Assembly (NCBI GenBank): GCA_016204275.1
Contig: JACQKZ010000012.1
Location: forward strand, 1 to 58,259
Direction: 5' to 3'
From: Nanobdellati archaeon
GTDB taxonomy: Archaea > Nanobdellota > Nanobdellia > UBA10117
DNA: 58,259 bases
Part shown: positions 14,572-54,464 of the stretch, one piece after another
How the letters are laid out: every line of letters starts with the position of its first letter
How positions within the stretch are numbered: position 1 is the stretch's first letter
Position numbers and translations under genes: made by a program
The notes under the pieces: generated by a model
Databases searched by the model: none
What the model saw: the letters and a program-made list of their open reading frames with translations, nothing else
Told to the model about the DNA's origin: nothing

Positions 14572-15543
14572 ATGGAAATCTCTGAAAATAAAAATAATGA
14601 AAAAGAAATTGATGTTTTGCCGAAGGATGAATCCATAGATTCACCCACACCAGCTTCACCAACACCAACAACACACTCATCTAAATCTTCGGGCAAGAAG
14701 TACATTGCCCTGCTTGTTCTTATTGTAGTAGTTGCAGGCCTGTTTTACTTCTTACGCGCAGGCACTGGCGATGTTACCGGCTCAACGACTGCATTGCCTG
14801 CTGGGCAAAGCGATTCTGGCGAAAAAGTAGCGCAGGATAACGAGCCAGCCCTGCCAAAGGTAGATGTCGATGTACAAACAACACCACCCGCCAGAAAGTC
14901 AGCATCACAATCAACCGCTGGCATGGAATGCCAGGATTCTAATTCATGTACAATAGATACGTACGACCGAAATAGCGGCCAATGCACACATTCACCCGTA
15001 GCTAACTGCTGCGGCAATTCTGTATGCGAACAGGGCGAAAGGTGCAACAGAGAGACACTCGAGACAGCCTGCCCGCAGGACTGCTCATTGTCGTGCGAAG
15101 CTTTCTTAACAGTAAGCAAATTCGCGGCGCAAAAAGAGCCGGACAAGTACAGTTACAACTGCGCATCAGGCAGCTGCGAAGCCAATGGACTTAACGAGTT
15201 TAAAATAACCGGCGATGCAGTAGTTCATACATTTATCAACAACTGGGGCGAACTTATAGCAGAAAATTCAGTCTCAGCACAGACATTTTGCACATACAAT
15301 GGCGAGCAGATAAAACTGGATGGCACATTATTCGGGGTAGGAATTAAAGACTACTTCGGCGATAACAAGGATACATCTGGGCAGATAAGCGCAAGGAATG
15401 CAAAAGGCCAGAACTATGCCGAATATGCGATAGCAGTAAGCCGGCCATCAAATTTGGATAATGGTGTCCGCATCCAATGCACCGCGCTGTTGCAGTCCAC
15501 AGATATATCAAACAGCCAGAATTTGGTTTTTGTCTTAAGCTAA
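14572..15543 (+). CDS. membrane-anchored extracellular Cys-rich protein
   Basis: TM segment YIALLVLIVVVAGLFYF, followed by a Cys-rich block CQDSNSC..CCGNSVCEQGERCN..CPQDCSLSC. 323 aa. Confidence 0.65.
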   Translation: MEISENKNNEKEIDVLPKDESIDSPTPASPTPTTHSSKSSGKKYIALLVLIVVVAGLFYFLRAGTGDVTGSTTALPAGQSDSGEKVAQDNEPALPKVDVDVQTTPPARKSASQSTAGMECQDSNSCTIDTYDRNSGQCTHSPVANCCGNSVCEQGERCNRETLETACPQDCSLSCEAFLTVSKFAAQKEPDKYSYNCASGSCEANGLNEFKITGDAVVHTFINNWGELIAENSVSAQTFCTYNGEQIKLDGTLFGVGIKDYFGDNKDTSGQISARNAKGQNYAEYAIAVSRPSNLDNGVRIQCTALLQSTDISNSQNLVFVLS

Positions 15544-41571: not shown

Positions 41572-41754
41572 ATGACAAAAGGCACGCCATCAGAAGGCAA
41601 GAAGAGTGGAAAGGTATCGCACATCAGATGTAGGAGATGCGGCTACCCTGCGTACCACAGGCAGGCCAGGCGCTGCGCGAAGTGCGGCTTTCCGGATGCA
41701 AAGATAAGGAAGTACGCATGGCAGAGCAAGAGATTAGGCAAAAGACTTTTTTAG
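41572..41754 (+). CDS. rpl37e: 50S ribosomal protein L37e
   Basis: MTKGTPSEGKK..HIRCRRCG..RCAKCGF zinc ribbon. 60 aa. Confidence 0.9.
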   Translation: MTKGTPSEGKKSGKVSHIRCRRCGYPAYHRQARRCAKCGFPDAKIRKYAWQSKRLGKRLF

Positions 41755-41895
41755 ATGCTTGTTAACTATTGCGTTCGGCAAAGCCGAATGCAATTAAAGC
41801 GCCAGCCGATTCCTTCAAAAAGGAGGTCTCGCAAACCAAAGTTTGCGAAATCGCGGCTGTGGTAGAGCAAGAGATTAGGAAAGAGGCTGTTTTAA
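41719..41895 (+). repeat. direct, in-frame duplication of the last 12 codons of rpl37e (copies 41719-41754 and 41860-41895)
   Basis: 30 of 36 nt are identical. Five of the six differences fall at third codon positions, and four of those are synonymous sense-codon changes (the fifth is the stop, TAG/TAA). There is a 16-nt identical core, AGAGCAAGAGATTAGG. The offset is exactly 141 nt. Confidence 0.85.
41723..41863 (+). mobile_element. putative miniature (gene-less) integrative element inserted in the rpl37e 3' end
   Basis: One 141-nt repeat unit. The spacer carries a 12-bp-stem hairpin (41768-41794) and an 8-bp-stem hairpin, TCGCAAAC-CAAA-GTTTGCGA. The first hairpin recurs inside the tRNA-Ile intron. 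Confidence 0.35.
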
Positions 41896-41936: not shown

Positions 41937-42126
41937 GGGTCCGTAGCTCAGTCTGGCTAGAGCGCCTGCCTCTTAATATTAAGAGCAAGCAGGATGTCGC
42001 GAGTTCGAAACGGAGATGCCTTCCGTTGGGTTGTGTAACAACCCGACCCGGGGAGGGTCAGGATGAGCGTCCAACTGGGGAGGGGTGGAACCCCTCCGCG
42101 GTTCCGAGAAAGTCTCGTCGGGCCCG
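41937..42126 (+). tRNA. tRNA-Lys: tRNA-Lys (CUU) with two introns: 12 nt in the anticodon loop and about 103 nt in the T-loop
   Basis: Hand fold: acceptor GGGTCCG/CGGGCCC (one G:U pair), D arm GCTC/GAGC, anticodon arm CCTGC-CTCTTA[12 nt]A-GCAGG, T arm GCGAG-TTCGAAA[42011-42113]-CTCGT. The exons sum to 75 nt. The intron is GC-rich with three hairpins. Confidence 0.7.
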
Positions 42127-54129: not shown

Positions 54130-54464
54130 TGGGCCCGGGCTGAATTTCTTCGACTGTATTTATTGCATTCGGCAAAGCCGAATGCGATCCCGTCTTTCTT
54201 GGGATACAAACAAAATCCACGAGGATTTTGTTGTACGGCCGAACATTGTTCGGTCGTAAACGTTAGACCTTCTTTCCGGAAAGAAAGAAGGGCTGTCGAT
54301 TCGAACAGCCGACCTCTGCCTTACTGATTCTTCGCCCGTAAAGTTTTGTGCGATTGTAAATCGCACTATTTTTCTTTTGGGGTTTCACAGAGAACTTTTC
54401 TTTTTTTAAAAAGAAAAGGGCTGTGTTATCAGAGCAGCGCTCTACCGGGCTAAGCTACGGGCCC
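54130..54464 (-). tRNA. tRNA-Ile: tRNA-Ile (GAU) with two large introns: 105 nt in the anticodon loop and 156 nt in the T-loop
   Basis: Minus-strand fold: acceptor GGGCCCG/CGGGCCC, D arm GCTT/GAGC, anticodon arm CTGCT-CTGATA[54322-54426]A-GGCAG, T arm GGCTG-TTCGAAT[54143-54298]-CAGCC, discriminator A. The exons sum to 74 nt of 335. Confidence 0.7.
54162..54188. repeat. palindromic hairpin module shared with the rpl37e-adjacent element
   Basis: ATTGCATTCGGCAAAGCCGAATGCGAT versus ATTGCGTTCGGCAAAGCCGAATGCAAT at 41768-41794 (25 of 27 identical). It lies inside the tRNA-Ile T-loop intron. Confidence 0.8.

Follow-up and report, generated by a model that had tools for sequence, protein, structure and literature searches.

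A two-hairpin element, probably mobile, at protein-gene boundaries and in tRNA introns of small archaea

The DNA analysed here, a stretch of 58,259 nucleotides that we call the window (GenBank JACQKZ010000012.1), is contig C26 of a Woesearchaeota-like metagenome-assembled genome (MAG) of 705 kb in 30 contigs, 68% complete. This genome is G000 in our numbering; 60 relatives (61 genomes with our own) carry the other G numbers, C denotes a contig and L a locus examined. Directly behind its ribosomal protein gene rpl37e lies an insert with two stem-loops, HP1 and HP2, which belongs to a family of what are probably small mobile elements. The rpl37e coding sequence (41572-41754, + strand), identified from the list of open reading frames (ORFs) and from orthologues in relatives, is complete; it encodes 60 amino acids with a zinc ribbon (CRRCG...CAKCG) and ends in a TAG stop. 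Its working last 11 codons and stop (W Q S K R L G K R L F *; 41719-41754) form the first copy of a duplicated flank. The insert then begins with a variable 5′ spacer, X (ATGCTTGTTAACT, 41755-41767), which differs in length and sequence among family members. It continues with HP1 (41768-41794), a 27-nt hairpin with a 12-bp stem, an AAA loop and one G.U pair, supported by covariation within the family, and with a linker and the 5′ strand of HP2 (TAAAGCGCCAGCCGATT, 41795-41811), a conserved stretch that is the signature of the family. Two extra hairpins (41812-41826 and 41829-41848, together 41812-41848) occupy the HP2 loop and make this copy a long variant, to be compared with those at C16:5020-5145 and C1:7633-7758. 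The 3′ strand of HP2 (CGCGGCTG, 41852-41859) closes the element, of which position 41859 is the exact 3′ end. From the very next base the second flank copy runs (41860-41895), a displaced rpl37e tail reading TGG TAG ... TAA. All these features are on the + strand. Directly 3′ of the displaced tail lies the promoter region of a multi-intron tRNA-Lys(CUU) gene, with its 5′ exon at 41937-41975 (+). The covariance model of the family matches 41754-41859 with 51.2 bits, and as RNA the rpl37e element folds at −44.2 kcal/mol (z = −6.0), with local hairpins only in the fold. Gene names, several of the tRNA assignments and the drawings of bulge-helix-bulge (BHB) motifs in this work were read by eye.

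The second locus of interest in the window is a tRNA-Ile(GAU) gene on the − strand (54130-54464; exons 54427-54464, 54299-54321 and 54130-54142), interrupted by an anticodon-loop intron of 105 nt (54322-54426) and a T-loop intron of 156 nt (54143-54298). The gene is called as tRNA-Ile(gat) by aragorn once both introns are removed. According to the original prediction the T-loop intron contains the same 27-nt hairpin as the rpl37e insert, and this is borne out: ATTGCGTTCGGCAAAGCCGAATGCAAT (41768-41794) and ATTGCATTCGGCAAAGCCGAATGCGAT (54162-54188, + strand) agree at 25 of 27 positions, and both form the 12-bp stem with an AAA loop when read on the + strand. With up to three mismatches allowed, the window contains no other match, and none was obtained in 100 dinucleotide shuffles. 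A G:U wobble in each stem had also been proposed. It is found on the + strand, where the tRNA-Ile copy has the T.G of the family consensus at stem pair 3, but not in the tRNA-Ile transcript: since the gene lies on the − strand, the loop there becomes UUU and the variant position, as read from the sequence, a C.A mismatch. Of the two contexts given for the hairpin, the tRNA intron stands, but the rpl37e copy is not within the protein gene; it lies outside the reading frame, 14 nt past the stop codon.

The tRNA-Ile site matches only the HP1 positions of the covariance model (17.8 bits). Within the T-loop intron this HP1 is one of five internal branches and lies outside the splice-site helices. 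The minimum-energy fold of the intron gives the order T stem, 3-nt bulge AUU, 3-bp helix UUC:GAA, 3-nt bulge GAA and helix UCGAC:GUCGA, a predicted BHB of the relaxed type with a central helix one pair below canonical. A gene for the splicing endonuclease EndA is present in the genome (PF01974, 95.7 bits, C29:51436-51696). A T-loop intron with the identical hairpin also occurs in the sister genome G002, and the T-loop introns that G009 and G014 have at this position of tRNA-Ile are unrelated. The tRNA-Ile copy is probably an HP1-only remnant, or a module, in a composite intron that the sister species has too. The proposed link between rpl37e and tRNA-Ile therefore extends to HP1, but not to the whole element, and the hairpin is antisense to the tRNA.

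The 5′ end of rpl10e in this genome carries a third HP1 copy (C28:39047-39073), whose likeness to the rpl37e insert extends beyond HP1. Over a dozen loci sharing this layout emerged from a search with the extra stretch past HP1, AAGCGCCAGCCGATT. Ten short copies of our own genome were used to build a covariance model, which recovers 15 copies there; with two long variants these make 17 full copies. The genome search suggested with the original prediction thus places the rpl37e insert in a genome-wide family. The element is non-coding, measures about 65-125 nt and consists of a variable 5′ part, in which a GGCGGCTG box is frequent, followed by HP1, a C(C/T)AAAGCGCC linker and HP2. The HP1 stem has 9-12 bp of variable sequence (consensus GTTGCAT...ATGCGAC) with a conserved T.G at pair 3. 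HP2 has the form CAGCCG-ATTTNG-CGGCTG, and other hairpin modules are at times nested in its loop, as in three copies of our own genome including that at rpl37e. The commonest HP2 stem (AGCCG/CGGCU; 41803-41859 in the window) may resemble the base of helix 45, at the 3′ end of archaeal 16S rRNA, possibly by chance. No Rfam family matches at the gathering threshold, with only sub-threshold matches at E values up to 5, and the module sequence found no match in the literature that was searched; the two-hairpin element is undescribed in both.

Other modules are shared as well. Both the HP2 loop of the long variants at C16:5020-5145 and C1:7633-7758 and the anticodon-loop intron of the tRNA-Ile gene of G002 (L075, C21:7731-8229) contain a module CCAGAG..TTGGCCAAG..CTCTGG, which shows that the hairpin modules nest in one another. 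A larger repeat, CCGGGAGGGTCAGGA...CCCTCCGCGGTT, encloses four near-identical element copies in G002 (L042-L045 at C7:26020, C2:286, C5:7742 and C3:31534, respectively) and is part of the T-loop intron of the tRNA-Lys gene of the window (42040-42110). At L042 and L045, at least, the composite stands 3′ of a tRNA 3′ end, which then recurs. Among the four copies compared, the insert of L042 is absent from the orthologous position in G000 (C30:330-700). The suggestion that a shared pool of mobile hairpin modules links the protein-gene and tRNA contexts is supported by these relationships.

The two-hairpin structure is maintained by selection. In 52 distinct copies from relatives 94.3% of the cells pair, as compared to 76.5% in shuffles and 28-39% with slid partners, and compensatory change is seen at 16 of the 18 base pairs, with flipped or exchanged HP2 stems among the cases. 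Pair 3 of HP1 is U.G in 40 of these 52 copies, and in the alignment of our own copies G.U cells outnumber A.C cells by 13 to 1. Such an excess of G.U over A.C means that pairing is selected on one strand only, and by the same criterion the HP1 of tRNA-Ile is in family sense on the + strand, antisense to the tRNA. A crude long-ORF test of element orientation gave mostly ambiguous output. An intrinsic terminator was considered and rejected: there is no T-run after HP1 or HP2, and copies lie between co-translated genes of operons and in front of start codons. The ubiquitous terminator-like hairpin that would have spoken against a special role is not what was seen, as the copies are tied to tRNA introns and duplicated ends.

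The relation of the element to its flanks is precise at one end. In 16 of the 17 copies of our own genome, as had been suspected for the module, host sequence from upstream of the element recurs starting at the first base after it, at offset 0 from HP2, and the same is true of many copies in relatives. The automated set has flank repeats of 11-71 nt, and two pairs of filled and empty sites have shorter ones of 4 and 7 nt. Inspection of the ORF translations by eye identifies what is repeated as the end of a gene or the junction of two. The junctions are S4/S11, L5/S14, L22/S3, S12/S7, SUI1/RNase P subunit and L44e/S27e; the 3′ ends are those of rpl37e, deoxyhypusine synthase and a Hef-like helicase, and the 5′ end is that of rpl10e. 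Because gene ends are duplicated, both neighbouring genes remain complete. The base immediately 5′ of the upstream copy of the duplicated segment is A at 28 of 36 loci against a background of 30% (p = 6e-9), and at 23 of 31 after five orthologous loci are dropped.

The insertions also fit the translation of the operons in which they lie. An ATG-led ORF bridges the element at 23 loci, and at 20 of these it stops between −13 and +8 nt from the start of the downstream gene; the other reading frames across the element stop at scattered distances from that start. A conserved peptide in these bridging ORFs was ruled out, since by eye the frames through the element vary from copy to copy, and it looks as if the bridging ORF keeps translational coupling. 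Where the junction interrupts a start codon, as seen again by eye at rpl10e, S3, S27ae, S2 and S4, a new GTG or TTG start arises whose first base is the final one of the element. The rpl10e locus (C28:39008-39115) illustrates the arrangement: the element follows the fourth codon, the original ATG GCA AAA CTA is left upstream, where it opens a 30-codon ORF ending in HP2, and the working gene starts at a GTG of which the G is the last base of the element.

In relatives the complete element itself forms tRNA introns. In the sister genome G001 the orthologue of the tRNA-Lys(CUU) gene of the window, also located downstream of rpl37e, has a 37/38 intron that consists of a full element (44.8 bits). 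The element runs antisense, and its exact 3′ end abuts nucleotide 37. The 37/38 intron of tRNA-Thr(UGU) in G021 is a full element in the same arrangement, and both tRNAs were confirmed by aragorn after removal of the element. Two further 37/38 introns of this kind were recognized by eye, in tRNA-Ser of G021 and in tRNA-Ala of a MAG labelled Iainarchaeum. In the latter the element ends in AGCCG, which pairs with a CGGCU box upstream, and by eye a textbook BHB is formed, with a central helix of 4 bp, two 3-nt bulges and splice sites after the second base of each bulge. By eye, none of the four 37/38 intron sites shows a flank repeat. Elsewhere the element abuts the first base of a tRNA (L020, L110), stands 3′ of a tRNA 3′ end that then recurs (L098) or separates repeated tRNA 5′ parts (L019, L107). 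At L019 (G018, C4:1366-1565) two tandem elements lie between three copies of an antisense tRNA 5′ part with a promoter-like AT-rich stretch, which looks like repeated invasion of one site.

Covariance-model matches were found in 11 of the 60 relatives, all of the same order, with 1-15 matches each. Between genomes of the same genus, orthologous sites are filled in one and empty in the other, and this goes either way. G000 has an element at the deoxyhypusine synthase site where four relatives have none, and the S3Ae, aEF-1beta and S27ae sites and a fourth one are filled in G001 or G002 and empty in G000.

The two flank copies are not related as a simple decaying target-site duplication would be, an explanation that is ruled out by the codon-position pattern of their differences. 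Over 25 loci, copy 1 and copy 2 differ at 13, 5 and 64 first, second and third codon positions, respectively, corresponding to 58 synonymous and 14 non-synonymous codons; the rough expectation for one drifting and one constrained copy is that less than half of the differences fall at third positions. The deoxyhypusine synthase gene (C11:3035-3880) is a mosaic: over about 330 nt it has few mismatches between G000 and G002, until about 95 nt before the stop, and beyond this break the tail of copy 1 is identical to G002 at 55 of 87 positions. Copy 2 is nearest to a different genus (G009, 74 of 87), and its last ~30 nt and the downstream sequence match the tails of relatives. We infer from such comparisons that whole cassettes of tail, element and tail may pass between lineages by homologous recombination through conserved flanks, which would explain why the flank copies resemble alleles. 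The excess of ribosomal protein and tRNA loci may likewise arise because these are the most conserved DNA and would serve as recombination anchors. When flank identities were compared for signs of an imported side, jumps were seen at several loci, with no consistent direction.

Judged by MAG labels, the 3′ part of the element is also found beyond this order. The exact 25-nt 3′ module AAAGCGCCAGCCGATTTNGCGGCTG occurs at 27 loci in a collection of species-representative genomes, in MAGs labelled Woesearchaeota, Pacearchaeota, Nanoarchaeota, Iainarchaeum, Altiarchaeales, Thermoplasmatota and 'archaeon' and in one labelled 'bacterium', and on a further 28 metagenome contigs. The covariance model matches the loci with this module, and flank repeats are visible there again, with the same anatomy. 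On G+C-rich contigs labelled Thermoplasmatota HP1 is G+C-rich as well and the 3′ module is unchanged. The MAG labelled 'bacterium' contributes a very G+C-rich contig of 421 kb (JAZJZE010000001.1), which carries the exact 3′ module and a G+C-rich HP1 (L096, 6837-6892). So strictly conserved a 3′ module suggests that a protein recognises it.

Candidate enzymes were sought across the 61 genomes. Reverse transcriptase (RVT_1) is encoded in two of them and in one of the 12 element carriers (G002), and TnpB in 14 genomes and in none of the 12 carriers, so that neither tracks the element, where genome incompleteness means that the absence of reverse transcriptase is not proven. The reverse transcriptases of G002 (L141, 1987-3024, − strand; L142, 2186-3286, + strand) have SQ..N.YL and YVDDF motifs and lie beside proteins whose C-termini look like variable repeats; classified by eye, they are probably diversity-generating retroelements (DGRs) unrelated to the hairpin element.

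The element is multi-copy, structurally constrained on one strand, patchy at orthologous sites and exact at its 3′ end. It is probably a small, non-coding, non-autonomous mobile element of which HP1 is stem-loop 1. The term integrative mini-element used in the original prediction is apt insofar as the family is probably mobile, but it fits loosely, as neither an integrase nor another enzyme was found. The element would enter DNA through some enzyme by nick-dependent copy-in or one-ended insertion, and would persist where it does no harm, at gene boundaries or at tRNA positions from which it can be spliced. At a gene boundary the duplication would restore both the upstream gene's stop and the downstream gene's start, a read-through ORF ending at that start would keep the two genes coupled, and a GTG or TTG start codon could take its first base from the end of the element. 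In a tRNA gene it would survive where a BHB forms and the splicing endonuclease removes it, and so become an intron. Homologous recombination through conserved flanking genes would then spread it among lineages.

Several observations weigh against this interpretation. Insertion is deduced from the comparison of filled and empty sites and was never seen directly. Duplications of such variable length match no standard transposase, and our own genome, 68% complete as it is, contains no Y1 transposase (PF01797), reverse transcriptase or TnpB (PF07282). A self-comparison of this genome for repeats of at least 150 nt that resemble insertion sequences (IS) gave none apart from one unrelated pair (C29:14034-14184 and 14656-14806; 151 nt, 87% identical). 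Across 55 loci the only recurrent neighbouring ORFs are housekeeping genes or come from duplicate contig records, and two patterns searched in viral contigs found no match. All sequences are from MAGs and incomplete, and the counts include some orthologous loci, so that they are not fully independent. The one-strand structure, together with the fact that the copies of our own genome are by eye sense to their neighbour genes, could also mean that the element is an RNA with a function in the host.

This last explanation survives best among the alternatives, and we regard it as unlikely. The element would be a cis-acting RNA at operon junctions and 5′ ends, acting in processing or stability or as a portable device for initiation or coupling, and would have been copied because it is useful. 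The selection of pairing on one strand with its prevalence of G.U over A.C, the bridging ORFs that end at the downstream start at 20 of 23 loci and the identical 3′ module across phyla are all in agreement with it, as is the placement of about half of our own copies in translation-related genes, all of them by eye sense to their neighbours, and of a GGAGG box often seen by eye upstream of the hairpins. However, filled and empty sites within one genus imply that no gene depends on the element, in other lineages it is antisense to genes and tRNAs, it has no match in Rfam, and the peptide frames differ by eye among copies. Flank duplication and the A at the target are signatures of insertion rather than of regulation.

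Somewhat less likely again is that the family is a retroposon resembling short interspersed nuclear elements (SINEs), with a sense RNA that ends at the foot of HP2 and serves as template for target-primed reverse transcription at a nick in the DNA. This process comes nearest to the anatomy seen: the exact 3′ end, the variable or truncated 5′ part, target duplications of 4-71 nt, the preference for A at the nick, the conserved 3′ structure and selection on the sense strand would all follow. Against it stands the occurrence of RVT_1 in just one of 12 carriers, where by eye it looks to be of the DGR type, and it is because of this missing reverse transcriptase that we give target priming a low probability. 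We know of no archaeal SINE. As compared to long interspersed nuclear elements (LINEs) and SINEs, with which it shares an exact 3′ end with a stem-loop, a variable 5′ end, duplications of variable length and a base preference at the nick, the element is without poly(A) or an internal promoter, its hosts are prokaryotic, and reverse transcriptase is present in one carrier of 12.

We consider it very improbable that the element homes by means of a guide RNA, with HP2 as a handle of the crRNA or omega-RNA type and the adjoining flank as the guide that directs a nuclease to empty alleles. An ultra-conserved handle is indeed followed directly by host sequence, the element spreads by way of conserved genes, and the mostly synonymous differences between copies 1 and 2 could be an escape from self-targeting. 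But TnpB is encoded in 14 of 61 genomes and in none of the 12 carriers, no nuclease gene recurs nearby, several identical duplications of 19 to 53 nt would be self-targets, and homing alone makes no duplication.

Even less credit can be given to the idea that the inserts beside protein genes are BHB introns, cut from mRNA by the tRNA splicing endonuclease. The same family does form tRNA introns in relatives and an EndA gene is present, but rpl37e, rpl10e and the operon genes are complete without splicing, and the boundaries of the inserts are direct repeats rather than complementary sequences, with no BHB across them by eye; on these two grounds the idea was rejected. In addition, the protein-gene copies of our own genome have the opposite orientation to the 37/38 intron copies of relatives. 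A chance match, an ordinary terminator or an artefact of metagenome assembly has practically no probability left: both sequences come from a MAG and hairpins after genes are common, but no match was expected by chance and the same anatomy appears in independently assembled genomes from several studies.

Returning to a mobile element, known systems provide partial counterparts. For the transposed tRNA-intron clusters of Thermoproteales, intron gain is thought to occur at the DNA level by an unknown mechanism (Fujishima et al. 2010, as summarised in PMC4090602). Unlike these clusters, the present family is not confined to tRNA genes but is also seen at protein-gene stop and start codons. It combines an exact 3′ end with a duplicated flank and is found in DPANN and Thermoplasmatota-labelled MAGs, and its four 37/38 intron copies are antisense to the orientation at protein genes. 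In fungal mitochondria, mobile ORFs form gene hybrids: the insert brings a gene tail of foreign origin along, leaving the resident one cut off downstream of it, and the genomes concerned also contain small hairpin elements. The atp6 gene of Allomyces likewise has such hybrids, and Allomyces also has double-hairpin elements. The mitochondrial elements carry an endonuclease ORF, whereas the present element is 65-125 nt long, has no conserved ORF, is archaeal and also forms tRNA introns. In Glomus mitochondria the hybrid genes formed by mobile ORFs concern atp6, atp9, cox2 and nad3 and probably arose through horizontal transfer (PMC3630166). The likeness in gene-tail displacement was found at deoxyhypusine synthase, where copy 1 is divergent and the resident tail lies downstream.

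Miniature inverted-repeat transposable elements (MITEs) and palindrome-associated transposable elements (PATEs) are, like the present element, small, non-coding, multi-copy, hairpin-rich and non-autonomous. With MITEs the element also shares the occurrence of filled and empty sites. The element differs from MITEs in having neither terminal inverted repeats nor a duplication of fixed length, and its left end is undefined. It differs from PATEs, which belong with IS200/IS605, in that no Y1 transposase was found, TnpB occurs only in genomes without the element and target duplications are present. Homology-facilitated illegitimate recombination has in common with our observations that a foreign allele takes the place of the 3′ part of a gene, whose own tail stays behind downstream. 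The junctions here are, in contrast, always marked by the same 65-nt structured element, with its exact end and the A rule at the target, and the presence of the same element at every junction argues for a dedicated mechanism rather than one-off recombination.

A more specific proposal is tentative, and we consider it possible rather than probable: the family may be a vehicle of archaeal tRNA intron gain. A widespread archaeal enzyme would recognise the 25-nt handle and copy the element into nicked DNA after an A, via RNA or single-stranded DNA; landing where a BHB can form would yield an intron, and landings at gene boundaries would survive by flank duplication and a bridging ORF.

One family is now seen both as a canonical tRNA intron and as an insertion at protein-gene boundaries, which makes the element of these small groundwater archaea a concrete candidate for the way in which archaeal tRNA genes acquire introns. 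Defined sequences and a 25-nt handle are available for an enzyme search. The family also marks recombination junctions between DPANN lineages, and it shows how compact genomes tolerate insertions in ribosomal protein operons: ends are rebuilt, starts are re-created and coupling is kept.

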